Positions 1,388 to 42,797 of a DNA stretch of 64,000 nt are shown here, piece after piece. Under the pieces are notes generated by a model. That model saw nothing but the letters and a program-made list of their open reading frames with translations. It was not told the origin of the DNA and ran no database searches. The translations under genes were made by a program, and so were the position numbers. The stretch spans positions 154,094 through 218,093 of the forward strand of contig DASCOS010000004.1 of the NCBI GenBank assembly GCA_036012125.1, in the 5' to 3' direction. Source of the stretch: Vicinamibacterales bacterium. GTDB lineage: Bacteria > Acidobacteriota > Vicinamibacteria > Vicinamibacterales > UBA823. Position 1 is the first letter of the stretch. Each line of letters starts with the position of its first letter.

Positions 1388-1852
1388 GTGGCCGAGCTCA
1401 TTCACACCAGCCGAATACGCTTAGAGAAGATTAAGGGTTCACTTCGGCACGCGTACGTCGAAAACTTTAAGGCCCCAATCCGCTTCGGTATTCATGGCGG
1501 CATCAAGAGGTTCTACGGTATCGAACCTGACGAGGAGTTGCCAGCCACCCTCGATCATCTAATTGCGGCGGTTGGTGGTTGACTGCTTGGCACCTTGGCC
1601 GGCGCACTGGAAGTGCGCCAGATCCCGTCTGGTGACGGCTGTCTCACGGCCGCCGTGGAAGGCGACATTGAAGCGGTCGACAAGATCCTGCGTATAACCG
1701 AGATCCGAGTTCGTTACACACTCAAGATTCCCGCAGGCACCCGCGCAGCGGCTGATCGTGCGCTGACAACTCACGAGAGTAAATGCCCGGCCGCCGTAAG
1801 CGTCCGTAGCTGTATTAAGATTGTGATCACAGCTGATGTGACAGAAGAATAG
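1388..1852 (+). CDS. OsmC/Ohr-family peroxiredoxin, candidate selenoprotein (in-frame UGA at 1580-1582 read as Sec)
   Basis: Track ORFs 1388..1582 and 1595..1852 are in the same frame, separated only by a TGA plus 4 sense codons. AGGAGG (1377-1382) lies 5 nt before the GTG start; the downstream piece has no RBS of its own. The joined product reads ...LDHLIAAVGG-U-LLGTLAGALEV...THESKCPAAVSV..., which is the two-Cys OsmC/Ohr layout with U at the first conserved Cys. Confidence 0.7.
1601..1619 (+). promoter_or_regulatory. SECIS-like stem-loop downstream of the OsmC UGA
   Basis: GGCGCAC-UGGAA-GUGCGCC forms a perfect 7-bp stem with a 5-nt G-containing loop. The stem starts 18 nt after the UGA, and the loop starts about 25 nt after it. 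This falls within the spacing I recall for bacterial SECIS elements. Confidence 0.5.
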
Positions 1853-1965
1853 AGAGGCATCCGATTTAGTAGTGGTAGAGGACTGCTGTAGGATTGCCTA
1901 TCATGTGGGCCCTGGATGCGATCGGAACTCGTCGTTCTCATTACGGGGACCTACGGCACTGATTT

Positions 1966-2253
1966 ATGGCTCGACTATCGGCCGCAGCGATCACCGAACA
2001 ACTTGCGTCGCTCTCCGCTTGGATTCGTGACGGCCAGGCCATCCAGAGGGAGTTTACGTTCCCGTCGTTTTTGGAGGCTGTAGCGTTTGCGAATCGTGTG
2101 GCGATGGAGGCCGAACGTGCAGATCATCACCCTGACATTGTGATTCGCTTTCGGAGTGTCATGCTGGTCTACGTGACACATAGCGAGTCTGGACTCACCC
2201 AGAAGGACTTCGATGGAGCGCGGGTGGCCGACCGGGTAGCCGAAGCTCGATGA
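1966..2253 (+). CDS. Pterin-4-alpha-carbinolamine dehydratase (PCD/DCoH family)
   Basis: 95 aa. The motif FANRVAMEAERADHHPDIVIRFRSVMLVYVTHS (HHPD core) and the size are typical of PCD. Confidence 0.85.
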   Translation: MARLSAAAITEQLASLSAWIRDGQAIQREFTFPSFLEAVAFANRVAMEAERADHHPDIVIRFRSVMLVYVTHSESGLTQKDFDGARVADRVAEAR

Positions 2254-2267
2254 GAGGCTGACTGACT

Positions 2268-2786
2268 GTGCGGCTAAAGAAGACCTACAGTTCCCGAGAA
2301 GTCGCCGCGCTGACGGGGCTTTCTGCCCGCCAACTGCAGTGGTGGGACGCACGGAAACTGCTGACATCAACAGTGGCATCGCAGCGAACTGCTGCTGGGG
2401 GCTTCACTGAGCGGAGGTACTCTCCCGTCGAGTTGTACGAGCTCCTTGTGCTCGCTGACTTGCGCCGCCACGGCTTTTCCGTTCAAAAAATTCGTGCGCT
2501 GCTCAAAACACTGAAACGGCAATTCGACATACGGCTCTACGACGCCATCCGCGGTGGTGGGGAGATTACGTTACTGACCGATGGACGCGAGGTGTACGCA
2601 CGTACTTTGAAGGGGGAGTTCTACAATCTGCTGCGCGCGCCGAGTCAGCCTTTGCTGGTGCTTGGTGAAGGAGAAGATTTGAAGGAGTTCAGTACGCGAG
2701 CTCGCCCACGACGGTCCAAGAAGCGCCTCGCTGCGAGGCGAAATGCGACAAAGCCGACCAAAAAAACGAAGCGTCAGCGTTCCTGA
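2268..2786 (+). CDS. MerR-family transcriptional regulator with a basic C-terminal tail
   Basis: N-terminal HTH YSSREVAALTGLSARQLQWWDARKLL. Lys/Arg-rich C-terminus (RRSKKRLAARRNATKPTKKTKRQRS). Confidence 0.65.
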   Translation: MRLKKTYSSREVAALTGLSARQLQWWDARKLLTSTVASQRTAAGGFTERRYSPVELYELLVLADLRRHGFSVQKIRALLKTLKRQFDIRLYDAIRGGGEITLLTDGREVYARTLKGEFYNLLRAPSQPLLVLGEGEDLKEFSTRARPRRSKKRLAARRNATKPTKKTKRQRS

Positions 2787-2808
2787 TGCGATGATCACGC
2801 ACTAACGT

Positions 2809-3933
2809 CTACACAATCTTCCCACGCGCCTCGACTGGGAGTGTCTCGATGACTGTCCATCCATCGACGAGTTGGACAGCATCCACTAGGTTCGATACAA
2901 CGCACGAATGATTCGGCAGAACGCGTACGCGGTCACCAGGTTCTAGGCCTGTAGCGCCATTCTGCACTTCTACGACCCCGTGTTCTTCCGAAAGCCGCGT
3001 GATCTGCAGTGAGTCGTCTGGTGTTGTCTCGTCGAGAGTGGAAAAAACGGCGCCGTAGCCCACCGGGCGGACCATTCCACGACCGGTGTCTGAGGTAAGT
3101 GTCTTGCTACCGCAGTCGAGAACGATGCGGTTGCTTGCCGGCTTACTGACCACGGTCGCCATCACGGAGAGTGCGCAATCGTCGAGTGAGGCAGAGCCAA
3201 TGGCAACCTGGCTACGATCGTAATAGACGTAGTTGCCTGGCCGAAGCTCCGTAAGGTCAGGCTCTGAAGCGCTTAGCATTGCTGTGGCGGTAGAGCCGAC
3301 GCTAATTTCGTCGATTTTGACTTCAGCCTGTCGTGCCCCGTCAGCCAGCGTTCGTAGCGTCTCGGCTTCGTCCTTCGCTACGGCGGCCAGTTCCTCTGCG
3401 GAACCTACGTCGTAACACTGGCCGGCGTGACTGAGGAGTCCACGGAGTCGTAGTCCTGGCAGGGTAGTTACGTGTGAAAGAAACGCGACGGCCTGAGTCA
3501 TCTCGGGAGCAATGCCACACCGCTGATACCCGACGTCAACCTTGACGAGGACGTCGAGTTGCCGGTCGTATGCACACATCGCCTCGGACCACTGTTCAGC
3601 CACTGTTGGATGATCGATTGCAAGTGAAAGTTTTACACGGTCCATCAGTGCCATGACACGTGTGGCACTGAACGGATTGATTGGATAGGGCAACCGGATG
3701 TCGGAGATACCCGCGTCGGCAAAAACTTCCGCCTCGCTGACTTTCGCGCAGCAGATCCCTGCCGCACCTTGTTCGAGTTGCCACTTTGCAATCCGAGGGC
3801 TCTTGTGGGTCTTGGTGTGCGGTCTAAGCGTCAGCCCCCCTGATGTTGCGACGGTTTGCATTCGCTTGATGTTGGCCATAAGCCGGTCCCGATCGATGAG
3901 GACTTGCGGTGTGGGGAGTTCGGTCAATTGCAT
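2809..3933 (-). CDS. D-threonine aldolase / D-serine dehydratase-like PLP enzyme (alanine racemase N-terminal fold)
   Basis: 374 aa. TPQVLIDRDRLMANIKRM...LRPHTKTHKSPRIAKWQLEQGAAGICCAKVSEAEVFA matches the PHxKTHK PLP-lysine block of the DTA/DSD1 family. Confidence 0.7.
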   Translation of the reverse strand: MQLTELPTPQVLIDRDRLMANIKRMQTVATSGGLTLRPHTKTHKSPRIAKWQLEQGAAGICCAKVSEAEVFADAGISDIRLPYPINPFSATRVMALMDRVKLSLAIDHPTVAEQWSEAMCAYDRQLDVLVKVDVGYQRCGIAPEMTQAVAFLSHVTTLPGLRLRGLLSHAGQCYDVGSAEELAAVAKDEAETLRTLADGARQAEVKIDEISVGSTATAMLSASEPDLTELRPGNYVYYDRSQVAIGSASLDDCALSVMATVVSKPASNRIVLDCGSKTLTSDTGRGMVRPVGYGAVFSTLDETTPDDSLQITRLSEEHGVVEVQNGATGLEPGDRVRVLPNHSCVVSNLVDAVQLVDGWTVIETLPVEARGKIV

Positions 3934-3964
3934 GATGGCAATTATCCATTTCAGTGAGTCAGTA

Positions 3965-5548
3965 TTAGTAGATCCTTACCCGGCTCTGCTCTTTCAGAAA
4001 CTGCTGGACGTAGTAGGGCCCACCAGCACCGCGACCAGACGAGCCACTTGCTTTCCAACCACCGAACGGATTGATACCTGGCCAGGCGCCAGTTGTCGCG
4101 CCAGCCTGCCGGTTGGCGTAAACGACGCCAGCTTGGATTTCGTCGAAGAAATTGGCTATTTCATCCTCATCGCTGCTAAAAATACCAGCCGTTAAACCGT
4201 ATTCGGTCTTGTTGGCGAGCCGTATTGCTTCGTCAAACGACGTTACTTTACCCACGACAGTGATCGGGACGAACAGCTCATCGGTGAATAATCGGTGGCC
4301 GTTCGGTAAGCCATCAATGACGGTCGGTTCGAGAAAGTAGCCATGTCGAAAGGGCTCTTCGGTAATTCGACGCCCCCCGGTGAGGACCCGCCCGCCGTCG
4401 CGCTTAGCCTCTTCAATTGCCCGTTCATAAGTCTTAACCGCCGCTTCGTTGATGACAGGTCCCATCCAGACATCGCGCTCAAGCGGGTTACCAATCTTGA
4501 TCTTTCTGGTTTTCTCCACAAGTTCCTCGACGAACCTATCGCAGACATCGGTCGCGACGTACACACGAGAGCATGCGGAACATTTCTGGCCTTGGGCACC
4601 GAACGCCGAGCGCCACACACCTTCGGTAGCTTTATCCAGGTCAGCTGATGACATGACTAGAGTGGGATTCTTGCCTCCCATCTCGGTGATGACCGGGCGC
4701 GGAGCTGGACGTCCGCCGTTCTCACGGGACAGCATCATTCCAACTTCTTTTGACCCGGTAAAAACGATGCCGTCGATGTGTGCATTTTCCGCAATTTCCT
4801 GGCCGACTGAGTTTCCAGGCCCGGTTACAACGTTGAATACACCTGGAGGTACGCCGGCCTCGGCGGCGATATCGTAAAGCCTCAAACCGAGCCTTGGCGT
4901 ATCGCTAGCTGGTTTCAGCACGACGGTGTTCCCCGCGACAAGTGCGCCGCCCGCCGGACCTGCGGCCAGCGCCATGGGAAAGTTAAACGGGGAGATGACT
5001 GCCCAGACCCCATGAGGACGCATGACACTGGTGTTCTCTTCATTCGGCTCTAGTTTGTCCATCGTCTGGCAAAAGCCGTCGTGTGCCTCTATCTGATCGC
5101 AATAGTAGGTCATGAAATCGGCGGCTTCTTCTATATCGCCTACGCATTCAAGGCGATTCTTGCCAGTCTCAAAACCCATCCAGGCTGCTAGTTCCCAACG
5201 CTGGGCTCGAATGCCGTCCCCAATCTTACGGACTATAGCCACCCGCTCTCTCCATGATCGCCCACCCCAATCAGCCGCGGCTACGCGAGCAGCACGAACC
5301 GCATCGCGCACATGGTCGGCGGTACCCTTTTGAAACCGCGCCAAAACAATCCGCGTATCGTTCGGGCTTAAGTCTTCAAACTGTTCGGCTGATTCGATGG
5401 CCTCACCGTCAATGTACATTGGATAAGTTTTGCCTAGCTGCGCTTTGACCTGTTCGATCGCCTCGTCAATTCCAAGGTGAAGCGCTTCCATCTGGTCGGC
5501 GCTCATCGTCGCGTAGGTGATTTTCATCTCGGGTTTACTACCGCTCAT
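3965..5548 (-). CDS. pruA: L-glutamate gamma-semialdehyde (1-pyrroline-5-carboxylate) dehydrogenase, aldehyde dehydrogenase superfamily
   Basis: 527 aa. ALDH motifs FTGSKEVG and EMGGKNP are present. FGAQGQKCSACSRVYV (GQKCSA) is the variant I associate with RocA/PruA-type P5C dehydrogenases. Confidence 0.7.
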   Translation of the reverse strand: MSGSKPEMKITYATMSADQMEALHLGIDEAIEQVKAQLGKTYPMYIDGEAIESAEQFEDLSPNDTRIVLARFQKGTADHVRDAVRAARVAAADWGGRSWRERVAIVRKIGDGIRAQRWELAAWMGFETGKNRLECVGDIEEAADFMTYYCDQIEAHDGFCQTMDKLEPNEENTSVMRPHGVWAVISPFNFPMALAAGPAGGALVAGNTVVLKPASDTPRLGLRLYDIAAEAGVPPGVFNVVTGPGNSVGQEIAENAHIDGIVFTGSKEVGMMLSRENGGRPAPRPVITEMGGKNPTLVMSSADLDKATEGVWRSAFGAQGQKCSACSRVYVATDVCDRFVEELVEKTRKIKIGNPLERDVWMGPVINEAAVKTYERAIEEAKRDGGRVLTGGRRITEEPFRHGYFLEPTVIDGLPNGHRLFTDELFVPITVVGKVTSFDEAIRLANKTEYGLTAGIFSSDEDEIANFFDEIQAGVVYANRQAGATTGAWPGINPFGGWKASGSSGRGAGGPYYVQQFLKEQSRVRIY

Positions 5549-5569
5549 CTTCAGTTTCTCCTCGTCCCG

Positions 5570-7180
5570 TTAGTTCTTCCGCAGGTCCTTTAGAATCTCG
5601 CGACTCGCATTCAATCCGCAAGCGCCGGTTACCCCGCCGCCAGGGTGGGTACCCGCGCCGCAAAGGTACAGGCCAGCAACCGGAGTCCGATATTGGGCCC
5701 AACCGAGTGCCGGCCGCATTGTGAAGAGTTGGTCCAAGGTATGCTCGCCATGAAAAATGTGGCCGCCGGTTAGACCGTAGACCGTTTCCAGATCGACAGG
5801 CGTCAAGATCTGCCGATGCAAAATCCGGTCTTCAAGTCCAGGCGCGTAAGCAGTGAGTACGCGAATAACCCTGTCGCCGAGACCATCGCGAGCTATGTGC
5901 CAGTTCTCGTCACGCAAATGGTACGGGGCGAATTGCGCGCAGATCGACATAACGTGTTGACCGTCAGGTGCCAAGGTCGAGTCATTAACCGTTGGGATCG
6001 TCACGTCGAGATATGGAGACTCAGAATAGCCTCCGTACTTGGAAGCATCGAATGCCCTCTCGAGGTACTCCACGCTAGGCCCAATGTGAATCCGCCCACC
6101 GAGCGCGTTTGTTCGCTCCGTAGAAGTTGCCGAAGCCAAGGCCGTGAATTCCGGAAGAGCGTCGAGTGCCAGGTTAATCTTAGCCATGGTGCCGGCCGCT
6201 CGATATCCCTTGATGGTGGCCACGAACGCAGGTTCAAGAGCGGCTGCTGAAATCAGTTTAAGAAAGGTTCGCTTGGGATCGGCGCCCGACACAACAGTGC
6301 GAGCAGTAATCACCGTCCCATCACTGAGGACCACGCCGGCAACTACACCCTGCTGGACATCGATGTGAGTTACCTCAGTGCCGGTCCTGATCTCGACGCC
6401 GACGGTCTGAGCAGCCTTCGCTAAGCCCTCGCTCAGTGAGCCGGGTCCACCTCTCGTGGTGGTCGCTGTAGGAAGCACGTGACCCCCAAGTGCCTGCTGC
6501 AGGAGGAAAGCCATACCCGAACCCGCCGATTTTGGACCCAGGTTCATGCCGTAAATGCCGCGGGCGGCCACGATGGCTTGCAGCGCTTCGGTTTCAAACC
6601 AGTCGGCGACTATGTCGGCCACTGGCATTGCTGACCACCTGAGTAGTCGGAACATGTTTTGTTTGCCGAGACCGCGAAACCGTCGGCCCGCTCTAATTAG
6701 CTGCCAGACGTCGCTAACCTTAGGATGCTCGGTTGATGGAGGTGTGCGCCACAGGAAATCACGTAGCACGCTACCGATTTCATCGAGGCATTCACTGAAG
6801 GCAAGGTACTGTTTGCTGTCGCGTTGTGAAAATGCACTGATTGAGTCTGCGGCGCGAACCGGGTCAGCATGAAGTAGAAGGGTGTGGTGGTCCGGTAGTG
6901 GCGCGAAAAGTCTCACCTCGGGTTCCGTGAAGCGAACGCCATGATGATGCAGGGCAAGGTCGTCGACCACTTTAGGATGCAGTGGGCCCACGGCGTGCGC
7001 CAAAGCAGGACATTTAAAACCTGGGTAGAGGTCTTCTGTTACCGCGGCACCACCGACTCCGTTTCGGCGCTCCAGCACGAGCGTTCGTACGCCTGCCCTA
7101 GCCAGATAAAACGCCGTAACGAGCGCGTTATGACCACCTCCTACAATAATTGCGTCGTACGACTTCACAGTGGAATTCAC
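5570..7180 (-). CDS. FAD-dependent oxidoreductase, PYROXD2/CrtI-like (COG1233 'phytoene dehydrogenase-related'), paralog 1
   Basis: 536 aa. N-terminal dinucleotide fold YDAIIVGGGHNALVTAFYLARAGVRTLVLERRNGVGGAAVTE. C-terminal LYLCGAGTHPGGGVTGACGLNASREIL. Confidence 0.75.
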   Translation of the reverse strand: MNSTVKSYDAIIVGGGHNALVTAFYLARAGVRTLVLERRNGVGGAAVTEDLYPGFKCPALAHAVGPLHPKVVDDLALHHHGVRFTEPEVRLFAPLPDHHTLLLHADPVRAADSISAFSQRDSKQYLAFSECLDEIGSVLRDFLWRTPPSTEHPKVSDVWQLIRAGRRFRGLGKQNMFRLLRWSAMPVADIVADWFETEALQAIVAARGIYGMNLGPKSAGSGMAFLLQQALGGHVLPTATTTRGGPGSLSEGLAKAAQTVGVEIRTGTEVTHIDVQQGVVAGVVLSDGTVITARTVVSGADPKRTFLKLISAAALEPAFVATIKGYRAAGTMAKINLALDALPEFTALASATSTERTNALGGRIHIGPSVEYLERAFDASKYGGYSESPYLDVTIPTVNDSTLAPDGQHVMSICAQFAPYHLRDENWHIARDGLGDRVIRVLTAYAPGLEDRILHRQILTPVDLETVYGLTGGHIFHGEHTLDQLFTMRPALGWAQYRTPVAGLYLCGAGTHPGGGVTGACGLNASREILKDLRKN

Positions 7181-8799: not shown

Positions 8800-8830
8800 C
8801 GGAAGTTCGCATTGTAAGCGATTATAAAAC

Positions 8831-8860
8831 TTGTCGGAGTCGTTCGATGGTTTCTATAAT
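8831..8860 (+). promoter_or_regulatory. Candidate sigma70-type promoter for the GcvT-like gene; a mirror TATAAT on the minus strand at 8821-8826 could serve the flavoprotein operon
   Basis: TTGTCG (8831-8836), an 18-nt spacer, then TATAAT (8855-8860), 42 nt before the GTG at 8902. The minus strand reads TATAAT at 8821-8826, upstream of the start at 8799. This is a by-eye call in an AT-rich divergent spacer. Confidence 0.3.
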
Positions 8861-11519: not shown

Positions 11520-13325
11520 ATGGACTATCAAACCTACGAACATGACGTGGTGGTGATTGGTGCGGGCGGTGCTGGGCTCCGGGCCGCGATCGAGTTATCG
11601 GCGTTGGGGGTTTCGGTTGGGGTGGTCTGCAAGTCACTGCTAGGTAAGGCGCACACGGTGATGGCTGAGGGTGGCGTAGCTGCTTCACTTGGCAACGTTG
11701 ATAATCGTGACGCGTGGGGTGTGCACTTCGCAGACACGATGCGTGGCGGGCAGTATATGAACAATGCGCGGATGGCGGAGCTTCACGCCAAGGAGGCCCC
11801 GGAGCGGGTCCGCGAGTTAGAAGCTTGGGGCGCCCTGTTTGACCGGACGGCAGACGGTCGTATTTTACAGCGCAATTTCGGCGGGCATAAATACCCTCGG
11901 CTCGCACATGTTGGTGACCGAACAGGCTTGGAGATGATCCGTACGCTCCAGGACCATGGGATACATCAAGGGATCGATGTGCATATGGAATGCACAGTCC
12001 TTGCTCTTCTTAAGGACGGCGATCGTGTTGTCGGGGCCGTAGCCTACGATCGTGAGCGGGGCCGTTTCCGCGTTTTCCATGCACGTGCAGTGGTGCTAGC
12101 CACTGGCGGTATCGGCAAGGCCTATCGTGTTACGAGTAACTCGTGGGAGTACACCGGGGATGGGCATGCCCTTGCTTACAATGCAGGTGCAGACCTTATC
12201 GACATGGAATTCGTCCAGTTCCATCCGACCGGGATGGTGTGGCCCCCAAGCGTAAGCGGCATCCTGGTAACGGAAGGTGTGCGCGGAGAAGGTGGCGTTC
12301 TGAAAAATAGGGACGGTCACCGTTTCATGTTCGATGAAATTCCTGATTTGTACAAGAATCAGACGGCCGACAACGAAGAGGAGGGTTGGCGCTACACCCA
12401 AGGCGACAAGGATGCGCGGCGTCCTCCTGAGCTGCTAACTCGAGACCACGTGGCGCGTTGTATTGTTCGCGAGATCCGGGAAGGACGAGGTAGTAAGCAC
12501 GGTGGCGTTTATCTCGACATTGCGTGGATTAAAGAGCGATTGTCGAACGGCACCGAACATATCAAGAAGAAGTTGCCGAGTATGTACCACCAATTCAAAC
12601 AGCTGGCGTCAATTGATATTACGCAGCAGCCGATGGAGGTTGGTCCAACCACCCATTACGTTATGGGCGGTGTGCGTGTCGATGCCGATACACAGATGTC
12701 AAACGTACCTGGTTTATTTGCTGCCGGCGAGTGTGCGGGCGGGTTACACGGCGCCAATCGTCTAGGCGGCAACTCACTGTCCGACCTACTTGTGTTTGGT
12801 AAGCGTGCGGGCGAGTACGCCGCAAAGTTTGCGAAAGAGCATAAGCCGGGCGCTGTGAACGCCGATCAGGTGGAGGAGGTAGCCCGGCGTGCGTTGGAGC
12901 CGTTCTCTAGAGAAGGCGAGAGCCCCTATAAGATTCAGCAGGACCTCCAGCAAACGATGCAAGATTTGGTTGGGATCAGTCGTCAGGACGTGGAGATGCG
13001 GAGAGCGCTGGATGAACTCGCAAACCTCCGGGCGCGTGCAGGTTCGGTTGGCGTCATAGGGAATCGAGAGTACAACGCTGGTTGGCACACCGCGCTTGAT
13101 TTACCGCATCTGTTAACCGTTGCGGAGGCTATTACCCGTGCTGCCGTGGAGCGTCGTGAGAGCCGTGGGGCGCACTTTCGCGAAGACTATCTTGCCAAGG
13201 ACGAAGGGTTGGGTCAGGTGAGTTTACTGGTTCGAAAGTTAGGCGATGGGTCGATGCAGGTTGTCCGCGAGCCTATTTCTGAACTGACGCCTGAGTTGGC
13301 CAAGATCGTTGACGACAACAAGTAG
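11520..13325 (+). CDS. sdhA: Succinate dehydrogenase/fumarate reductase flavoprotein subunit
   Basis: 601 aa. DVVVIGAGGAGLRAA, HTVMAEGG (FAD-His), HPTG, HYVMGGV and RESRGAHFRED. Confidence 0.9.
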   Translation: MDYQTYEHDVVVIGAGGAGLRAAIELSALGVSVGVVCKSLLGKAHTVMAEGGVAASLGNVDNRDAWGVHFADTMRGGQYMNNARMAELHAKEAPERVRELEAWGALFDRTADGRILQRNFGGHKYPRLAHVGDRTGLEMIRTLQDHGIHQGIDVHMECTVLALLKDGDRVVGAVAYDRERGRFRVFHARAVVLATGGIGKAYRVTSNSWEYTGDGHALAYNAGADLIDMEFVQFHPTGMVWPPSVSGILVTEGVRGEGGVLKNRDGHRFMFDEIPDLYKNQTADNEEEGWRYTQGDKDARRPPELLTRDHVARCIVREIREGRGSKHGGVYLDIAWIKERLSNGTEHIKKKLPSMYHQFKQLASIDITQQPMEVGPTTHYVMGGVRVDADTQMSNVPGLFAAGECAGGLHGANRLGGNSLSDLLVFGKRAGEYAAKFAKEHKPGAVNADQVEEVARRALEPFSREGESPYKIQQDLQQTMQDLVGISRQDVEMRRALDELANLRARAGSVGVIGNREYNAGWHTALDLPHLLTVAEAITRAAVERRESRGAHFREDYLAKDEGLGQVSLLVRKLGDGSMQVVREPISELTPELAKIVDDNK

Positions 13326-13340
13326 CTTGATGGAAACGAT

Positions 13341-14078
13341 ATGAGCACTGCGAGGTTCAAGATCTGGCGTGGCAACGCCGATGGTGGTGTATTCCAAGAG
13401 TATTCCGTTGAGGTTGCCGAAGGGATGGTTGTACTCGACGTTGTGCTCAAGATTCAGGCTGAGGAGGCGAACGACCTCGGGGTACGCTGGAACTGTAAGG
13501 CAGGGAAATGCGGCTCGTGCTCAGCCGAGGTCAACGGTAATCCTCGGCTCATGTGCATGACCGGCATGGACACGATTCCGACCGATCGACCGATCACGGT
13601 TGAACCAATGCAGACCTTTCCGTTAATCAAGGATCTGGTGACTGATGTCTCATGGAATTTTAGTGTCAAGCAGGGAATCACGCCGTTCACACCTCGGCCA
13701 GCCGATGCTCACGACGGAACCTGGCGGATGCAGCAGCGCGATGTGAATCGGGTTCAGGAATTTAGGAAGTGCATTGAGTGCTTTCTTTGCCAGGACGTCT
13801 GTCACGTCCTGCGCGACCACCGGAAGCATGATGAGTTCATCGGGCCGCGCTTCTTTGTCCACGCGGCGGCTTTGGAAATGCACCCGCTTGATGTTGCTGA
13901 CCGCGTTGAGGAGCTTGCTCAGACCGAGGGGATCGGCTACTGCAATATCACGAAGTGCTGCACCAAGGTCTGTCCTGAAGAGATTACGATCACTGATAAT
14001 GCAATCATACCGCTCAAGGAACGCGTGGTTGACCGCCTTTACGACCCACTTTCGAAACTCTTGCGGATATTTCGATAA
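13341..14078 (+). CDS. sdhB: Succinate dehydrogenase/fumarate reductase iron-sulfur subunit
   Basis: 245 aa with three Cys clusters: CKAGKCGSCSAEVNG...C, CIECFLCQDVC and CNITKCCTKVCP. Confidence 0.9.
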   Translation: MSTARFKIWRGNADGGVFQEYSVEVAEGMVVLDVVLKIQAEEANDLGVRWNCKAGKCGSCSAEVNGNPRLMCMTGMDTIPTDRPITVEPMQTFPLIKDLVTDVSWNFSVKQGITPFTPRPADAHDGTWRMQQRDVNRVQEFRKCIECFLCQDVCHVLRDHRKHDEFIGPRFFVHAAALEMHPLDVADRVEELAQTEGIGYCNITKCCTKVCPEEITITDNAIIPLKERVVDRLYDPLSKLLRIFR

Positions 14079-14101
14079 TGGGATTGTGATTGATCACTAG
14101 A

Positions 14102-14998
14102 CTAGTCCTCATCCCAGAACGCAGCTTCCTCTTCGTCCCATCGTTGCCGGCGAATTTTACGCTTCTGACGGTGACTCCAGATCGCCAGCAAAGCAAGTAG
14201 TGTCACGGCCGACCAAAGCGTGTAACCGCCGGTGAGAAATGGTAACCAGCGTTCAACGACAGACTGATTCATCATGAATTCCAGTTCTAGTGATGTCAGT
14301 GACCGTCCTGTCGCCACTTGAGTCGCTGCATCGAACGAGTGACCAGCGGCGACCGTCGACAGAATCTTAGCCGGTGCCGTGACCCCGTACTCGTGAATCA
14401 ATCGACGCACGAGCGCACCCGAAATAGCATAAGCTCGCTCGGCGGCGACACGGCCTTGGCCGAATCGGTGATTGAGGGATTCGAACGACATCTGGTGATC
14501 AACGACTCGGGTCCAGGCAAATCGAGTGCGGTCGGTAAGGCTCCAAGGCCGCTCAACCGTAATCGCTAATCCCTCGTCGAACCACCGGGGCAAGGGACGG
14601 CCGCGGGCGGCCCGCCCGATCAGTACGTGAGCGATCTCATGGCGCAATACAGATTCCAGCGAGTTATTCGGATAAGAAGGTGTTCTGGTAGGAAAGAGGG
14701 CAATCAGATTATGTTCGGTGACAGCATAACCAGCGACCCAATTTGGTATGCCATTTCGCCGTGCCACCGATTCGGTGACTAGTTCCACCAAGATAGGCGC
14801 TGCTAGGCCACGCACATCGGAAAGCCAGGGAGTCTCAAGTAATGGATTGGGGTCGTAATTTCTGATCTGTCTGGCGATCCCGCTGAACTCCTCCGGCGCC
14901 CTCACCTCAAGCCGTAGGGTCTGCGCGCTAACCGGTGTTGTGAATAAACAGACTGTGACCCACCAGAGGACGAACGTAGCACTCTGCCAAAGCCGCAT
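14102..14998 (-). CDS. Putative zinc metallopeptidase (HExxH) with signal peptide and C-terminal TM anchor
   Basis: LRHEIAHVLIG gives the HExxH motif, with a downstream FDEGLA. The start is moved to the internal Met (MRLWQSATFVLWWV..., 14998) to remove the overlap with the upstream gene. The C-terminal TM segment is followed by a KRKIRRQRWDEEE tail. Confidence 0.5.
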   Translation of the reverse strand: MRLWQSATFVLWWVTVCLFTTPVSAQTLRLEVRAPEEFSGIARQIRNYDPNPLLETPWLSDVRGLAAPILVELVTESVARRNGIPNWVAGYAVTEHNLIALFPTRTPSYPNNSLESVLRHEIAHVLIGRAARGRPLPRWFDEGLAITVERPWSLTDRTRFAWTRVVDHQMSFESLNHRFGQGRVAAERAYAISGALVRRLIHEYGVTAPAKILSTVAAGHSFDAATQVATGRSLTSLELEFMMNQSVVERWLPFLTGGYTLWSAVTLLALLAIWSHRQKRKIRRQRWDEEEAAFWDED

Positions 14999-15029: not shown

Positions 15030-16100
15030 TCAGTGTCCGAGCACACTCGTGATTGCGTCACGGTCGGGTGTTTGGAGGGGAAGGGTGACACCGTTTGCTT
15101 CAATCGTTACACCTGCCGCTGCTGGTCGCACTTCAGCGATTACGACTGCTGGAATGTTCTGCAACTCCAGTGCTGCGATAATTCGATCCGTATCGTTCCC
15201 AGGTGCACCGATCAGTAATGCACCCGACGCAATGAGCCGCATTGGATCCACTTTGAACGGGCGGCAAATAGCAGCGGTTTCTGGAAAAATCGGAACCTGG
15301 TCAGATCGAAGATGAAGACCGGTCGACGAGGCCGCAGCCAACTCGCAGAGTCCACCAATTAAACCGCCTTCCGTGGGGTCGTGCATGGCATGCACAGAAC
15401 CGACTTCAAGCGCGGTGCGAACAGCATCGACCACACTGATGCCGGGATCGAACAGAAACTGCTCAGCGCGGGCGAGCACATCGTCGGTTACCTGCCCACG
15501 AAGAACGTCACGCTTCTCGCGTGCCAGGAGGGCAGTGCCTTCGATGGCGACCCCTTGCGTGAGAATAATCTGATCGCCGACTTCTAGTCCGGTCTTTGCT
15601 ACGAGTCGGTCACGCGTGACTTCACCCAGCATCTGGCCAATTACGATCGGCCGATCGAGGCCAGTGGTAATCTCAGTGTGTCCACCGCAGACGGTTATTC
15701 CGAGGGATTGAGCAGTGTCGTGCACGTCCCTCATGATTCCGTCGATAAGTGTCTCGGTGGTGTTGTGTTCGGGCAAGAGCAGCACGACAGAAAGCCACCG
15801 CGGAGTGGCACCCATAACCGCGATATCGTTGGCGTTAACATGGACGGTATACCAGCCAATGCGATCCGTAGCAAAGGTGACCGGGTCGGTCGTGACAACG
15901 AGGCAACGGTCAGCAAATGTAATTACTGACGCGTCTTCACCCACCTTCGGTCCGATGATTACACGGGGATCCTCCCGGCGTAGCCCCGCAAGTAGAGTTC
16001 GGAGCTTGTCGGCGGGAAGTTTCCCAGGTTGAACGCGCGGAAATTGATTATCTGAGGGCACGGGGGCGCCGAGGGTAGCACGCGGTAGAAGACCGGTCAA
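15030..16100 (-). CDS. AIR-synthase-related (PurM/ThiL/HypE/SelD superfamily) protein of unknown specific function
   Basis: 356 aa. GEDASVITF...VTTDP...HVNANDIAVMGATPRWL...GGHTE...HDPTEGGL is the PurM-superfamily ATP-binding pattern. It has no SelD-type N-terminal Cys/Sec-Gly-x-Lys loop. Confidence 0.7.
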   Translation of the reverse strand: MTGLLPRATLGAPVPSDNQFPRVQPGKLPADKLRTLLAGLRREDPRVIIGPKVGEDASVITFADRCLVVTTDPVTFATDRIGWYTVHVNANDIAVMGATPRWLSVVLLLPEHNTTETLIDGIMRDVHDTAQSLGITVCGGHTEITTGLDRPIVIGQMLGEVTRDRLVAKTGLEVGDQIILTQGVAIEGTALLAREKRDVLRGQVTDDVLARAEQFLFDPGISVVDAVRTALEVGSVHAMHDPTEGGLIGGLCELAAASSTGLHLRSDQVPIFPETAAICRPFKVDPMRLIASGALLIGAPGNDTDRIIAALELQNIPAVVIAEVRPAAAGVTIEANGVTLPLQTPDRDAITSVLGH

Positions 16101-35141: not shown

Positions 35142-35145
35142 GCGT

Positions 35146-35655: not shown

Positions 35656-35669
35656 TGTTTGCCGTAGAT

Positions 35670-36689: not shown

Positions 36690-37987
36690 GCAGGATCACT
36701 CCACGCAGGTAACGCGTCAGGCCGTCCGAAACTCGACTGGAGCAGTTGCCAAAGAAATCTTGGATTTAACAGGTGATTTCTTGGACCGGCGTGGCCGATA
36801 AGCCCCATGAGTTGTCCAGCCCAGCGGCTATCATGCTTGGCGCGCGCAACTAGGTTCTCCAGTAGTCGCTGATTTCCGTGGACATGCTGCAGGAGTCTGC
36901 CGGTTCCGAAGTCAACCATGAATCGTCGCCGCCACGCCAGCTCGTAACCACGTAGTGCCTGGCTCGTCGCACGCCAATCAGCTCTAGTGATTGCATCATG
37001 AACCGCGCGGGCAGCTAGAAGCCCGCTGGTAAGTGCGTTATGAATCCCATGCCCGGTAAACGGATCGACGAATCCCGCCGCGTCACCGACGAGCAGAACT
37101 CCATCGGCTACAGTTCGACGCCTCAGGCTGGCCGATGGCAATTGCCAACCCTTTAGCTCTTGGGTACAAGAAAGGCTAATTCGGGAACCAATCATCCGGG
37201 TCAGATGCTGAATTAGCTCACCACGGGTCGGACGGTGGCGTGCGTCGAAGAGCCCGACGCCAACGTTAGCGCGATGTGTCGACACTGGCACGATCCAACA
37301 GCAACCGCGCTCGAACTGGCCGTTGGTAATCACTTCGAACCGAGGTGCTGACGCTGTGTGGTCGGTGTAGGCGCGCAGCGCAACGCTATAGCGGGGCTGT
37401 GTGCCGAACATGGGCGCGAGACCCCGACTTGCCGCGACTCGACTAAAGGCACCATCTGCGCCAACGACAACGGGAGCACAATAGGTAACACGATGGCCAC
37501 GCTGCTTCACCTGCAGCACGTTCAGTTGCTTGGTGGAGTCCCAGTCGACCCGCTCTAGGAGTTGATTCTCTCGTAGTTGAGCCCCACAGCGCTCAGCGTA
37601 TCGAGCTAGGCGTTCATCAAGGATGCGCCGGGGCAGGATTCGCCACAGGTGTTTCCGTCCGTGTAAATCAACAAAATCAGCACCTACTCGAAGCCCGCTA
37701 CCCGTAGTGAAGTTGCACCCCTCGATGGTGAACGCGTCTGGGGCCAGTTCGTCTAGACTCGTGCCCAGCATCGTCATCGCTGTGGCAACTTCTGGAAGTA
37801 GAACGTCACCGCAGACTTTGTCACGAGGAAACCGTCCTGCCTCGAGTAAGAGGACCCTGTGTCCCAACTGGGCGAGCGCTGCCGCCGTGCCGCTGCCGGC
37901 CGGTCCAGCGCCAACCACGACGGCGTCAGCGTCCCACGTTGAGGAGGATGAAGCAGATTGTGGCATTTGGGACACGGCTGCACACAA
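36686..37987 (-). CDS. Geranylgeranyl-reductase-family FAD-dependent oxidoreductase
   Basis: 433 aa. DAVVVGAGPAGSGTAAALAQLGHRVLLLEAGRFPRDKVCGD and LLVGDAAGFVDPFTGHGI. Confidence 0.75.
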   Translation of the reverse strand: MCAAVSQMPQSASSSSTWDADAVVVGAGPAGSGTAAALAQLGHRVLLLEAGRFPRDKVCGDVLLPEVATAMTMLGTSLDELAPDAFTIEGCNFTTGSGLRVGADFVDLHGRKHLWRILPRRILDERLARYAERCGAQLRENQLLERVDWDSTKQLNVLQVKQRGHRVTYCAPVVVGADGAFSRVAASRGLAPMFGTQPRYSVALRAYTDHTASAPRFEVITNGQFERGCCWIVPVSTHRANVGVGLFDARHRPTRGELIQHLTRMIGSRISLSCTQELKGWQLPSASLRRRTVADGVLLVGDAAGFVDPFTGHGIHNALTSGLLAARAVHDAITRADWRATSQALRGYELAWRRRFMVDFGTGRLLQHVHGNQRLLENLVARAKHDSRWAGQLMGLIGHAGPRNHLLNPRFLWQLLQSSFGRPDALPAWSDPA

Positions 37988-38095
37988 GGGAGAAAGCCGT
38001 GCCTGAGTTTCCCATGATTTACTTGTGTTGACAACGATCGGCAGTGGGCGACCGGATAGCGTTTGTTACTTATTGAGTAGCCAGTTACGATTTGT

Positions 38096-39292
38096 ATGAA
38101 TCAGGTAAACATTTCAATGAAGTCAGTCATTATTCACTACCAGGAAATTGCACTCAAGGGCGGCAACCGTCCTTGGTTCATTGCACGACTGGTGCGCAAT
38201 CTCCGTGCACTCACAGCCGATTTAGGAGTCACGAAAGTGCGGTCCCTTATGGGTCGTATCAAGCTGGAACTCGGTCCGACAGCCGAGTGGGAACCGTTAG
38301 CTGAACAGTTGCGCTTAGTATTCGGGATTGCCAACTTTGCCCAAGCTGGGCACGTGCTGGGGGGTGACCTGGACAAGATTGCGGATGCAGTAGTGGCCGA
38401 CCTGGGCGATCGGCAACCCGGGTCGTTTAGAGTATCGGCGCGCCGTGCTGACAAGCGGTATCCGCTCACCTCGCCGCAGATCGAGCGAGAAGTTGGGGGC
38501 AGGATCAAGGAAGCGAAGGGTTGGACGGTAAATCTGTCGGCGCCAGACCTGACAGTATATCTGGAAATGCTGACTGACGAAGTGTACTACTCGTTCGGCA
38601 AGCAGCAGGGCGCAGGGGGGCTTCCGAGTGGCGTGAGTGGTCGCGTCGCGTGCCTTCTTTCAGGCGGCATTGATTCACCCGTCGCGGCCTACCGCATGAT
38701 GAAGCGTGGCTGTGAAGTTCATTTCATCCACTTTCACAGCTATCCGATTCTTTCGAAGGCATCGCAGGACAAGGTGCGTGAAATCGCTAGGCTGTTCACG
38801 CGGTCGCAGTTGCGATCCCGCCTCACCATGGTTGCCTTCGGAGAAATCCAACGGCAGGTCGTTCTTACCGTCCCGCCTCCTCTACGGGTGATCATCTATC
38901 GTCGTCTGATGTTACGTATTGCGGATCGCTTGGCGCATAAGACACGCGCTCGCGCAATCGTGACTGGCGAGGTTGTAGGGCAGGTTGCGTCACAGACTCT
39001 TGAGAACTTAGCGGTGATCAACGCAGTGACTCGCTTGCCCGTACTCCGACCGCTAGTTGGCCTCGATAAGAACGAGATCACGGACGAGGCACGGTCTCTT
39101 GGCACATACCCAATCTCAATCATACCTGACCAGGATTGCTGTCAACTTTTCACACCAAAGCACCCAGCGACCCGGGCTACAGTGGTAGAGACTGAGGCTG
39201 CGGAAGCTACTCTACCGATCGATGAGATTGTCGAGAGTGCTATTGCTGAAGCGATGGTTGAACATCTGAGCTTTCCGTCGAAACAACCTTAG
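38096..39292 (+). CDS. thiI: tRNA 4-thiouridine synthase ThiI (THUMP + PP-loop, no rhodanese domain)
   Basis: HYQEIALKGGNRPWF is the N-terminus and LLSGGIDSPVAAY is the PP-loop. An alternative start at Met8 (38117) is equally plausible. Confidence 0.85.
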   Translation: MNQVNISMKSVIIHYQEIALKGGNRPWFIARLVRNLRALTADLGVTKVRSLMGRIKLELGPTAEWEPLAEQLRLVFGIANFAQAGHVLGGDLDKIADAVVADLGDRQPGSFRVSARRADKRYPLTSPQIEREVGGRIKEAKGWTVNLSAPDLTVYLEMLTDEVYYSFGKQQGAGGLPSGVSGRVACLLSGGIDSPVAAYRMMKRGCEVHFIHFHSYPILSKASQDKVREIARLFTRSQLRSRLTMVAFGEIQRQVVLTVPPPLRVIIYRRLMLRIADRLAHKTRARAIVTGEVVGQVASQTLENLAVINAVTRLPVLRPLVGLDKNEITDEARSLGTYPISIIPDQDCCQLFTPKHPATRATVVETEAAEATLPIDEIVESAIAEAMVEHLSFPSKQP

Positions 39293-39305
39293 GGATGCGC
39301 TCAAC

Positions 39306-39848
39306 CTATTTTTCATCAAATCCGTGGCGATAGAGATGCCCATCGAAATAATCGCGCAGTGCTTCTTGGGTACTGCGAAATGCCAAATTGTGCCATGGGA
39401 TCTCGTTCCGTGAGAAGCGGCCGATTTCGAGCGACTCCTCGCAATGGCGTAGAACGCCGCTGACCACTGTGGCAGCGTAGACGATGATGACAGGCGTGCG
39501 GCCGGTGTAAGAATAGATATTAATTAATCCGACGAGCCGCACATTGAGATTCGTTTCCTCGAGCGCCTCCCGAGTGGCGGCGGCCGTCATCTCCTCACCA
39601 CGATCTACGTAGCCACCCGGAAACACCCATTTTCCAAAGCCTGGCTCGATCGCGCGGCGCACGAGTATGATTCGGTCATCTTCCATCCTAATGATCGTGC
39701 CGACCGCCACCTTCGGATCGAGGTAGACCACGTGTTCGCACTCCCCGCAAACGAGTCGTTCCGGTTCACCGGCCTTTATTAGTTTCGCTGTAAGCACACT
39801 GCTGCACAGAGGGCAGTAACGGTAGGCGTGTTCTTGTGACGGAGTCAT
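39306..39848 (-). CDS. Nudix hydrolase with N-terminal zinc-ribbon
   Basis: 180 aa. CPLCSS...CGECEH, and Nudix box GGYVDRGEEMTAAATREALEETNL. Confidence 0.8.
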   Translation of the reverse strand: MTPSQEHAYRYCPLCSSVLTAKLIKAGEPERLVCGECEHVVYLDPKVAVGTIIRMEDDRIILVRRAIEPGFGKWVFPGGYVDRGEEMTAAATREALEETNLNVRLVGLINIYSYTGRTPVIIVYAATVVSGVLRHCEESLEIGRFSRNEIPWHNLAFRSTQEALRDYFDGHLYRHGFDEK

Positions 39849-39889
39849 CGTCTCAGTGTCTCACCTATTGCTCACGTATAATCGAGGGA

Positions 39890-40414
39890 ATGTCTATCCT
39901 CAATGTTGCGCGTATGGGCAACCCCGTGCTTCGTGAGAAAGCTCGGCCCGTTGAACGTTCGGAGTTGTTGACACCAGTCATACAGAAGTTAATCGATGAC
40001 ATGATCCAGACGATGGTTGAGTACCAAGGGATTGGATTAGCCGGACCACAAGTGCACGAGCAGCGGCAAATCTTCGTTGCTGGTATTGAGAATGGCGACG
40101 ACCCGATGCCTCTCATAGTTGTCGTTAATCCTGTCCTTACGTTGCTTGGTAGTCCGACCGTCGAGGACTGGGAGGGTTGCTTGAGCATTCCGGATCTACG
40201 GGGACGGGTACCACGCGCGCCTGAAGTGGAATTGCGTGCACTCGACCGTTATGGTGAACCAATGCAACTTACCGCTCACGGCCTCGCCGCGCGTGTTATC
40301 CAGCACGAGACCGACCATCTTAACGGCGTGCTGTTTGTTGATCGAATGCAATCCTTCGACTCGCTCACTCATCTCAATGAGTTCTCTCGATTTTGGAACA
40401 CAGAGAGAGACTAA
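39890..40414 (+). CDS. def: Peptide deformylase
   Basis: The start is taken at MSILNVARMGNPVLR. Three motifs are present: GIGLAGPQV, EGCLSIP and HETDHL. Confidence 0.9.
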   Translation: MSILNVARMGNPVLREKARPVERSELLTPVIQKLIDDMIQTMVEYQGIGLAGPQVHEQRQIFVAGIENGDDPMPLIVVVNPVLTLLGSPTVEDWEGCLSIPDLRGRVPRAPEVELRALDRYGEPMQLTAHGLAARVIQHETDHLNGVLFVDRMQSFDSLTHLNEFSRFWNTERD

Positions 40415-40456
40415 TCACCACTTTCCTGCTTCTTGGCTTCTGGACCAAAAATAATT

Positions 40457-42097
40457 CTAGGACCGGAGCCGCTTTTTCTCTGAAGCCCGTTCAGCTTGGA
40501 GACGTTCGAGGTCCACGGCCGAATGATCAGCGAATCGCATCGCGGCCGCGATAGCCCGGTGACCTGCCTTTTCGGCAATTAGTCGATGCATTGCTTGACA
40601 GACACGTCGATACGCTGGATGTCCCTGCGGGGCACTCCTGAGCTCAATCACGTGCATGGCTTCTCGCGCGTTCATGTGCATGTAAAAGCGGATACGGTAT
40701 GCCATGGCGACTGCATACGGTGCCACCGCGCCGAGGGTCGCCTTCTGCAGAGCTTCGTGTAGCTCAACCGATGACTCCATGACCTGCCGCCAGTCGGCAA
40801 GGGCACCGGCTTCTTCGATTGCTGCTGGTTCGTTGAAGCCGTGGTCGGTTGTCAGATCCTGCCATTCAATGCTGAGCAAACGATGTCTTTGGAGATCGCG
40901 AAATGCGCCGTAGTCCGATAGCACATCGAAACGGTAACCAGTGCGCTCAAATGCGCGGCCCGGCTTATGGCGGCGGTTTGTCCTGGCGCCGATGTAGGCT
41001 TTTAAGATTGACGCCCGCTCGCTGGCCGACATCTGCCTCGCCATGGCGAGTAGCTGAGAATCTGGCAGGTTTGACACCGCATAGAGTGCGGCAGCGACCA
41101 CTTTGACCTCGCCGTCTGGATCAAAATCGACCAACGACACCTCATCTCGTAGTTGGGGGTCGATGTCAGCCAATACGGTCATTGATGTTTGTTTTAGGTC
41201 AGTCTGCGTAGTGCTTAGATAGTCGCTCCACAGAACGCCTCGGTTGGGCAGGTCAACACGTGTCAGGAACGCAGGGATCACCTTGCGCAGTTCAATTAGC
41301 ATCATCTCCGCATATCGCTGCATCTCGGTCAGTGGATGTGCGCGCATTTGTAGAAGCAATCTTTCATATGCCTGCCCAGACCCGAAAATGCCCACGTTGG
41401 ATTGCGTTGCCGCCGGTAAGAGGCCACGTAATGTATCAAGGGCCTTCGCACGGATCGCTGCCCGGTAGACACCGTCCGAATCCTCTGGATCCTTCGGATG
41501 CTTGGCCTTGTAGTAATCCTGCATCGGTTCGATCCACCGGTTATAAATTTCGAAAGCGCGATCGAGGGTCCGGACGTACTGAGCGCGCAGTGTCGTCCCG
41601 TTAAGTTCTTCCGGGATTAAGTATTTCCAGTGGCCTTGCGGGCGGTCGGTGTAGGGTATGTAGCGTGTTGATTGTTCGAGATACGCTGCGAGCCTACCCC
41701 GCTCCAGCACCTTCGTTAGGAGGTTTGAGGCACCCTCACAGGCGATGTGCGCCCCGCCCAACTGAGCGACCGAGTCATCGCCGTACTCGTGGAAAACGCG
41801 TGTGTAGAGTCGCTCGGCACGCTCGACGCCAACATCTGGCGCCTGACGGTCGGCTCCGGAAACTTTGTCGGTGAATTCATCGAGAAACAGTCGACGCAGC
41901 GATTTTGCGGATCGCGAGTATCGGGCAAAGAGTGCTCCCTTGACGACGTCCGGTAAATTTGTCAGCGCGAACACTGGTCCCTCGAGATTCGTGAAATACG
42001 GTTCGAGGAGCCGTCGTTCCTCTGGGGTGAATGATTCGGCAGATGGGCGTTCGTCGGGCACGCCGTATAATAGTCGGGCGGTGCGAGGTTCCGTCAA
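40457..42097 (-). CDS. Long (tandem-domain) ThyX/Thy1-like flavin-dependent thymidylate synthase homolog
   Basis: 546 aa. The C-terminal half has FRDLQRHRLLS (RHRxxS). The N-terminal half has only the degenerate GALFARYSRS. Confidence 0.6.
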   Translation of the reverse strand: MTEPRTARLLYGVPDERPSAESFTPEERRLLEPYFTNLEGPVFALTNLPDVVKGALFARYSRSAKSLRRLFLDEFTDKVSGADRQAPDVGVERAERLYTRVFHEYGDDSVAQLGGAHIACEGASNLLTKVLERGRLAAYLEQSTRYIPYTDRPQGHWKYLIPEELNGTTLRAQYVRTLDRAFEIYNRWIEPMQDYYKAKHPKDPEDSDGVYRAAIRAKALDTLRGLLPAATQSNVGIFGSGQAYERLLLQMRAHPLTEMQRYAEMMLIELRKVIPAFLTRVDLPNRGVLWSDYLSTTQTDLKQTSMTVLADIDPQLRDEVSLVDFDPDGEVKVVAAALYAVSNLPDSQLLAMARQMSASERASILKAYIGARTNRRHKPGRAFERTGYRFDVLSDYGAFRDLQRHRLLSIEWQDLTTDHGFNEPAAIEEAGALADWRQVMESSVELHEALQKATLGAVAPYAVAMAYRIRFYMHMNAREAMHVIELRSAPQGHPAYRRVCQAMHRLIAEKAGHRAIAAAMRFADHSAVDLERLQAERASEKKRLRS

Positions 42098-42122
42098 CCT
42101 TCCTTCCTCCCCGCGCTAGGTC

Positions 42123-42557
42123 ATGGGTAGTAGCTTTCATCACTCAATCGACGTCAGGTTTCGAGATTGTGATGAGTTTGGCCACGTGAACAACGCGGTT
42201 TACTTCACTTACCTCGAAGAAGCACGCTGGGTGTTTTTACGCCACTTGCAGGGCCGGTCCCGCGATCACGGCTTGACCGATAGCGACAGAGTGCCGAAGC
42301 AGCCGGGAACGATCCTGGCGCACGCCGAATGTGACTTCCGATCGGAGGCTAAGTATGGTGACGTCCTTGATGTGTTGGTGAAGGTTTCCGCAGTTGGGCG
42401 TTCGAGTTTCAGTTACGAATACGAGGTCATCGAAAAATCGAGCAGCCGACTGATAGCAACAGCGAAATCCGTGCAGGTGTCCTACGACGCCGTAGCCAAA
42501 CGGCCGGTCCCCATTCCCAATGCATTACGCGTTGTACTCGAGGAAACGTTACGGTGA
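42123..42557 (+). CDS. Hotdog-fold acyl-CoA thioesterase (4HBT/YbgC-like)
   Basis: 144 aa. VRFRDCDEFGHVNNAVYFTYLEEAR is the catalytic Asp/His-Val-Asn block. Confidence 0.75.
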   Translation: MGSSFHHSIDVRFRDCDEFGHVNNAVYFTYLEEARWVFLRHLQGRSRDHGLTDSDRVPKQPGTILAHAECDFRSEAKYGDVLDVLVKVSAVGRSSFSYEYEVIEKSSSRLIATAKSVQVSYDAVAKRPVPIPNALRVVLEETLR

Positions 42558-42581
42558 TTCCGCAAGAGAGGAATGAGTAGC

Positions 42582-42797
42582 ATGAATCAGATCGTCTACA
42601 TCTTCGGCAAAGACACGTGACCTTATACCACTGCTGCCCGTGAGGACTATGCCAAGCGGAACATTGAGGTCGATTATGTCAACGTTAAGGAGGACGCTGA
42701 CGGGTTGCGTCGCATGCTGGAGTACACTGGCGGTCGACGTAAGGTTCCAGTGATTGTTGAGAATGACACGGTCACGACAGGATTTGGCGGCACATGA
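42582..42797 (+). CDS. Glutaredoxin-like (YruB/NrdH-size) thioredoxin-fold protein, candidate selenoprotein (UGA at 42618-42620 read as Sec)
   Basis: Not in the ORF track. My own translation is MNQIVYIFGKDT-U-PYTTAAREDYAKRNIEVDYVNVKEDADGLRRMLEYTGGRRKVPVIVENDTVTTGFGGT*. U sits where small glutaredoxins have the first Cys of CPYC. The VPVI...GF cis-Pro/beta-strand block is conserved. The 58 codons after the TGA contain no usable start of their own. Confidence 0.6.

Follow-up and report, generated by a model that had tools for sequence, protein, structure and literature searches.

Two probable selenoprotein genes, one of them with two predicted selenocysteine codons, in a contig from a marine Acidobacteria lineage

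The stretch of DNA analysed here (hereafter the window) comprises 64,000 nt of contig DASCOS010000004.1 from the Vicinamibacterales assembly GCA_036012125.1, with a G+C content of 56%. It contains two short thiol-redox genes interrupted by in-frame TGA codons, one OsmC-like (1388–1852, + strand) and one glutaredoxin-like (Grx-like; 42582–42806, + strand), for which a first-pass annotation had proposed decoding of UGA as selenocysteine (Sec). The first 3.7 kb of the window are 95% identical to the metagenome-assembled genome 'Acidobacteria bacterium SAT1339', and the truncated Grx fragment bears the NCBI label 'glutaredoxin family protein [Acidobacteria bacterium]'; the host belongs to a marine lineage of Acidobacteria for which metagenome-assembled genomes are the only source. 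Judging by the cytochrome oxidase assembly genes and the succinate dehydrogenase encoded in the window, this lineage looks aerobic. Sec decoding is known in some Acidobacteria (PMC1794560).

The OsmC-like gene starts with GTG after an AAGGAGG motif, ends with TAG and encodes a predicted protein of 154 aa. Its only interruption is the TGA at 1580–1582 (+ strand), predicted to encode Sec65 at the position of the peroxidatic Cys (context ...LIAAVGG-U-LLGTLAGAL..., Sec-spanning peptide AAVGG-U-LLGTLAGALEVR), and the frame is open on both sides of it. With Cys put in place of the TGA, the translation matched the Pfam OsmC family (PF02566) with 42.8 bits against a cut-off of 27.5 (E = 7e-11). In a profile alignment to OsmC structures, U65 shares a column with Cys59 of the E. 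coli protein and Cys133 (TGC codon at 1784–1786, + strand, motif KCPAA) one with the second catalytic, or resolving, Cys. By this alignment, both catalytic positions of the OsmC/Ohr superfamily are present in the protein. An AlphaFold2 (AF2) model of a Cys-form homologue with 56% identity has the OsmC/Ohr fold (predicted local distance difference test score 95.5), and its top Foldseek matches are OsmC/Ohr structures (E ~ 1e-8, template modelling scores 0.7–0.8).

Homologues run full length across the position of the OsmC-like TGA. Among 61 clusters of homologues, 22 have Cys in this column, 11 have 'W' and 28 are broken exactly there; the one 'W' case inspected at the DNA level was a TGA translated with genetic code 4. 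The Cys133 column holds Cys in all but two of the 57 clusters that cover it. When 1.84 billion representatives at 50% identity were searched exhaustively with a profile, 455 relatives emerged at E ≤ 1e-10. Within the best 150 of these 455, 58 cover the site and have Cys there, and a TGA signature is seen in 62 (35 as N-terminal halves, 24 as C-terminal halves and three as 'W'); the clade is about half TGA-form. TGA-form genes were also sought in species-representative genomes using a hand-built degenerate DNA pattern, which returned at least 120 loci. Verified TGA-form genes were present in no fewer than 119 species genomes (119 of 120 among the matches listed), spread over at least 10 phyla, including Acidobacteriota, Methylomirabilota, Chloroflexota, delta-proteobacterial orders, Gemmatimonadota, Nitrospirota, Actinomycetota, Latescibacterota and others, with Geobacter argillaceus and Bacillus salacetis as isolates among the hosts.

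A candidate Sec insertion sequence (SECIS) hairpin for Sec65, GGCGCACU-GGA-AGUGCGCC (1601–1619, + strand), lies within the coding sequence and starts 21 nt past the UGA. In an ungapped alignment of the 119 TGA-forms, covariation of its helix was 0.239 versus 0.138 in shuffled alignments, with none of 500 shuffles reaching the observed value. The helix outscored every slid register in this alignment, and double changes were present in seven of its eight pairs. Synonymous recodings of the hairpin region were less stable than the native sequences (Wilcoxon p = 2e-10 over the whole set; z = −2.0 for the native sequence of the window), and among genes encoding the same peptide at least seven of the eight pairs were formed in 46/54 Sec-forms versus 1/5 Cys-forms (Fisher p = 0.005). 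Some changes in the helix swap residues (Ala/Val) with pairing retained, which is how the putative SECIS appears to constrain the protein sequence, RNA pairing surviving changes of amino acid. The Ala, Val and Gly residues encoded on the two arms covary, in the combinations A..V, V..A, A..A and A..G. Other OsmC-like subgroups have a hairpin in a different register.

The Grx-like gene starts with ATG (alternative ATG at 42573) and encodes a predicted 74-aa protein with two Sec residues, a member of the glutaredoxin-like 'UXX-star family 1'. The first TGA (42618–42620, + strand; Sec13) occupies the CxxC position of glutaredoxins in a U-P-Y-T motif (peptide GKDT-U-PYTTAAR), and the frame is open on both sides. 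The active site of the family reads U/C-P-Y-T, with Thr where CxxC proteins have their second Cys. With Cys put for the TGA, the translation matched Pfam Glutaredoxin (E = 9e-10), and NCBIfam NF041114 ("UXX-star selenoprotein family 1") was matched with 108.1 bits against a cut-off of 72. Of 80 related metagenome loci, 37 have TGA and 40 have TGY as the active-site codon. No relative of the protein was found in viral contigs.

A second predicted Sec codon (42795–42797, + strand; Sec72) specifies the third residue from the C-terminus, in the peptide GFGGT-U-GV. The DNA following GFGGT reads TGA GGG GTA TGA, the last of these (42804–42806, + strand), 6 nt past the Sec72 codon, being the true stop. 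The first-pass annotation had counted a single TGA in each gene, which stands for the OsmC-like gene but not for the Grx-like one, where the TGA at 42795 had been misread as the stop. That reading, with the hairpin after TGA 42795 acting as a transcription terminator only, deserves consideration in its own right. With TTTATTATT after it, the hairpin (42808–42824) has a terminator-like score, and without its last three residues the protein would still be a complete glutaredoxin domain. However, TGA-GGN-GTN (rarely with another codon)-stop was conserved in 78/78 related loci with readable ends. The GGN and GTN codons show synonymous variation among these loci, and all three stops (TGA, TAG and TAA) occur at the end, from which it follows that the two codons after TGA 42795 are translated. 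The curated NF041114 profile includes U-X-X: the part of the protein before the third TGA matches its positions 1–67 of 70, and the profile runs three positions past GFGGT. Also, the family appears in a selenoproteome review of 2026 under the name 'Distant Grx-like protein 1', where two Sec and the motif UxxT are given for it (PMC13188914). No Cys-form of the C-terminal site was seen among 83 Grx-like clusters, one of which has Leu there.

The hairpin itself (GGCUGCC-GGU-GGCAGCU, 42808–42824, + strand), the candidate SECIS for Sec72, lies in the 3' untranslated region (UTR) and starts 13 nt past the Sec72 UGA. In 61/72 distinct relatives the best hairpin begins 11–20 nt past the corresponding UGA; the loops are rich in G, with G in the first two loop positions in 92%, and compensatory changes were detected in five of six pairs (RNAalifold). 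While the distance of the hairpin from the UGA is thus largely fixed, a T-run follows it in only 7/72 relatives, and a plain stop with a terminator is considered very unlikely. The same codon would thus have two readings 9 nt apart, Sec at UGA 42795 and stop at UGA 42804. The hairpin starts 13 nt past the former and only 4 nt past the latter, and it would be by spacing to this single hairpin alone that the two are told apart. Around 35 related Grx loci also have TGA as the true stop.

Evidence for a SECIS at the first Grx site was clearer for the family than for the window. A 6-bp helix (GCCGCC/GGCGGC) was complete in 19/31 TGA-forms versus 1/34 Cys-forms (p = 7.5e-8), and the site-1 Ala codon was GCC in 31/31 TGA-forms versus 8/34 Cys-forms. 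These tests of register-specific pairing and codon choice took the place of raw folding energy, which failed to separate TGA-forms from Cys-forms, the latter being slightly more stable and more GC-rich. The window's own candidate for Sec13 (42631–42659, + strand) consists of a 5-bp outer and a 4-bp inner stem with the loop AGGAC and is weaker than those of most relatives. A site-1 SECIS is therefore supported at the family level, and only weakly in the window.

Purifying selection acts on both sides of each TGA. Downstream of the OsmC-like TGA, the ratio of nonsynonymous to synonymous substitution rates (dN/dS) was ~ 0.05 in comparison with a 71%-identical relative, and between the two Grx TGAs it was ~ 0.1–0.3 with relatives ranging from 96% to 60% identity. 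The TGAs were also retained in independent assemblies (Tara, JGI, ENA, Logan). The window is 100% identical over 6.8 kb to a Tara Oceans contig and a JGI contig, the identical OsmC-like gene with its TGA was present in two further assemblies, and all Grx TGAs were kept in at least 10 assemblies at 92–97% identity. These data bear on the possibility that the TGAs are nonsense mutations in pseudogenes, or assembly or sequencing errors derived from TGC or TGT. Such an explanation would account for gene callers handling both genes as broken and for a window with no visible Sec machinery, but it is contradicted by the same TGAs in other projects' assemblies at 100%, 97%, 92%, 78% and 71% identity, by purifying selection on either side, by TGA at the same OsmC-like column in at least 119 species genomes and by the covarying downstream hairpins. 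We regard its probability as practically nil. An elevated assembly error rate, raised in the first-pass annotation as a circumstance that might produce TGA from TGC or TGT, was rejected on account of the identical TGAs in independent assemblies.

Equally negligible is the probability that UGA is a sense codon throughout the genome, read as Trp or Gly (codes 4 or 25), to which the 'W' given at these sites by some public pipelines in homologues might point. TGA terminates 20 of the 50 long open reading frames (ORFs) in the window, including well-conserved genes of expected length, which argues against genome-wide reassignment. Furthermore, the aligned residue in homologues is Cys rather than Trp or Gly, the Grx-like gene itself terminates with a UGA 6 nt past a recoded one, and no in-frame TGA was seen at conserved Trp or Gly positions of housekeeping genes in the window.

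Collectively, pairs of Cys- and TGA-containing homologues, SECIS-like hairpins, low dN/dS and identical TGAs across assemblies lead us to favour Sec decoding: both genes are very probably genuine selenoprotein genes, with three UGA codons predicted to be decoded as Sec. The same observations bear out the earlier preference for Sec decoding over independent nonsense mutations and the proposal of a Sec-decoding lineage. The positions of the in-frame TGAs at 1580 and 42618, at redox Cys positions with intact flanking frames, had likewise been placed correctly, and the Pfam matches agree with the families then named; the pattern of TGA and Cys at these columns in homologues exceeds chance by far.

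Several observations weigh against this conclusion. The case for Sec insertion is made at the DNA level. No selA, selB, selC or bona fide selD was found in the window when its 60-odd genes were compared with Pfam, as had been noted earlier, and the sole tRNA is a tRNA-Glu with anticodon CUC (57188–57262), also in accordance with the first reading. Nor was Sec machinery seen in near-identical contigs covering ~ 10 kb of left and ~ 3 kb of right flank. No SECIS family was matched by Rfam at either gathering or permissive thresholds. Within the Grx-like gene, the window's site-1 hairpin forms only four of six pairs in the common register, with a shifted pairing instead, and its fold z-score is −1.5 only; to this are added the above-mentioned failure of raw folding energy to discriminate TGA-forms from Cys-forms and the terminator-like character of the hairpin at 42808–42824. 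Finally, the helix is retained in one Cys-form OsmC gene out of five examined. This gene (301–771 of relative locus L220) has the full 8-bp helix, which may reflect a recent conversion from Sec to Cys, or chance in a GC-rich gene.

As for the Sec machinery, we infer its presence in the host genome. A tblastn search with an E. coli SelD query and an ARAGORN search for tRNA-Sec, both covering the window and 1.26 Mb of loci, returned nothing. An AIRS/PurM-superfamily protein encoded at 15030–16100 (− strand) resembles SelD, HypE and ThiL, scores under every curated cut-off and is easily mistaken for selD. It was rejected as such with 85.8 bits against 125 for SelD (TIGR00476), its HypE score being higher (110 bits, cut-off 251). 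Its N-terminus (PGKLPADKL) has a SelD-like Lys context lacking Cys or Sec, as judged against the N-terminal Cys/Sec-x-x-Lys motif of SelD, with E. coli SelD for comparison. A PLP-dependent (pyridoxal phosphate-dependent) decarboxylase gene (1–828, − strand; counterpart at 13106–14635 of near-identical contig L217) has a weak precomputed Pfam match to SepSecS, attributable to general fold-type-I similarity, and was likewise rejected as Sec machinery.

Even with a SECIS-dependent mechanism, the residue inserted could in principle be Cys, delivered on a tRNA(Sec)-like tRNA(Cys) ('selC*') carried by SelB. The maintenance of a costly TGA alongside Cys-forms is the usual pattern of true selenoproteins, and here about half of the OsmC clade keeps TGA despite the existence of Cys-forms, as do nearly half of the Grx loci. 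The host lineage moreover looks aerobic, whereas selC* has been proposed for some anaerobic bacteria; selC* tRNAs have been described in the Firmicutes, Thermodesulfobacteria, Nitrospirae and Proteobacteria, with no report in Acidobacteria (PMC5389517). DNA cannot tell which amino acid is loaded, but on balance we consider insertion of Cys highly improbable and retain Sec as the predicted residue.

In the established bacterial mechanism, SelB acts together with a SECIS element in the mRNA. If it applies here, the hairpin shortly past each UGA would recruit SelB with Sec-tRNA(Sec), and the ribosome would add Sec rather than terminate; the SECIS for Sec72 of the Grx-like protein would lie just past the true stop codon. 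The OsmC-like protein would be a hydroperoxide reductase of the OsmC/Ohr fold, with Sec65 in place of the peroxidatic Cys; judging from the conserved positions, Sec65 would be oxidised by peroxide and then resolved by Cys133 as a selenenylsulfide. In the Grx-like protein, Sec72 on a flexible C-terminal tail (G-G-T-U-G-V) is the most likely partner of Sec13, and the pair may form a diselenide in the host lineage and a selenenylsulfide in the forms with Cys13.

In comparison with known systems, the Grx-like protein falls squarely within UXX-star family 1 (NF041114). In addition to its score above the cut-off, it shares the glutaredoxin-like fold, the U/C-x-x-T active site, Sec third from the C-terminus followed by Gly-Val-stop, and two Sec per protein. 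Nothing essential differs: the N-terminal site is Sec rather than Cys, as in 37/80 loci, the true stop of the window gene is UGA, and the hairpin 3' of it is at the same time terminator-like.

An OsmC-like selenoprotein family has been known since 2005 from marine metagenomes, namely the Sargasso Sea (PMC1088965) and Global Ocean Sampling (GOS; PMC2398784) datasets, and both the OsmC-like and the Grx-like family are counted as selenoproteins in a review (PMC13188914). The window's OsmC-like protein resembles the Sargasso Sea/GOS family in its Pfam OsmC assignment, in Sec at the first catalytic Cys and in its marine origin. That family was described with a UxxT motif from three and five Sec sequences, while the window protein has U-[LM]-x-G-T, the comparison being by description only; unlike those few Sec sequences, the window's clade is about half TGA-form and extends to at least 119 species genomes. 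With NF041052 (OsmC_like_Se, 'OsmC-related (seleno)protein') it shares the OsmC superfamily and the alternation of Sec and Cys, but membership was rejected with 16.2 bits against a cut-off of 95, and the best NF041052 E-value among 26 members of the clade was 2.5e-6. The OsmC/Ohr thiol peroxidases (E. coli OsmC, 1qwi/1nye; T. thermophilus, 1ukk; Ohr, 1n2f and 6eb4) have the same fold and share both catalytic positions, at an identity of 11–19% only and with Sec replacing the peroxidatic Cys in the window protein. No match reached the curated OsmC and Ohr equivalog cut-offs. The OsmC-like clade, which has no curated NCBIfam model and is routinely split in public annotation, thus appears to be a widespread selenoprotein subfamily.

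The features of the fdhF-type bacterial SECIS, on which the criteria of bSECISearch bear, are well established. The window hairpins resemble it in starting 13–21 nt past the UGA and in having a small, G-containing apical loop, but show no sequence similarity to it, and the Sec72 element lies past the stop, in the 3' UTR.

As regards public annotation of this abundant marine lineage, the two genes are either split up or absent: the OsmC-like gene is cut into 64 aa and 85 aa, and the Grx-like gene is given as a 55-aa fragment only, among others in NCBI records of metagenome-assembled genomes, or as no gene at all, in line with the earlier remark that gene callers would truncate or miss them. The lack of a curated model for the OsmC-like clade leads to faulty gene calls in well over 100 species genomes. 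Although genuine, the finding is an ordinary one, the Grx-like protein belonging to a curated family and the OsmC-like family being already known; it extends Sec in antioxidant enzymes to an apparently aerobic, oceanic group of Acidobacteria, leaves knowledge of Sec decoding unchanged and introduces no new principle.

The earlier claim of a rich redox selenoproteome proved to be an extrapolation. A masked scan of the window for further TGA-interrupted genes returned the OsmC-like and Grx-like genes only. Candidates upstream of 43139, 18072 and 55614 and around 61975 were rejected for want of coding support. A thioredoxin/AhpC-like lipoprotein (59581–60549, + strand), whose family has Sec forms elsewhere, has a normal Cys in its motif (WCPDC). 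The presence of two selenoprotein genes within 64 kb is suggestive, though no measure of the genome, and the interval 1580–42620 given in the first-pass annotation is the mere distance between two codons and no feature.

Related loci with 600 nt or more on either side, 38 in number, were used to compare the surroundings of the Grx-like gene. The gene for the flavin-dependent thymidylate synthase, thyX, lies within 1.5 kb of it in 22/38; the arrangements at related loci are upstream divergent (26) and downstream co-directional (11), and in the window the thyX-side neighbourhood occupies 40457–42097 (− strand). This proximity may reflect a functional link. One conceivable form of it, a double-Sec Grx-like protein acting as a diselenide shuttle that supplies ThyX with the electrons given by NAD(P)H in vitro, is in our view unlikely. 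A YbgC-like thioesterase gene (42123–42557) adjoins the Grx-like gene in 16/38 related loci.

The Grx-like gene is followed by a 330-nt gap, in which a promoter-like site (42877–42905, + strand; TTGACA-17-GATAAT, 11/12 consensus) lies 234 nt upstream of a gene for a hydrolase of the metallo-beta-lactamase (MBL) fold (43139), in whose long leader no Rfam element was found. At the other end of the window, a gene for a secreted protein with a Blh-type sulfur-transferase/phosphatase-like domain and an HCGSANR motif (815–1351, − strand) is the divergent neighbour of the OsmC-like gene, an arrangement that is the same in the near-identical contigs L217 and L218. The gap at 61890–62256 (367 nt) contains only a 69-aa ORF (61990–62199) with no Pfam match; the in-frame TGA at 61975 lies upstream of this ORF, which is kept by gene callers in related contigs.

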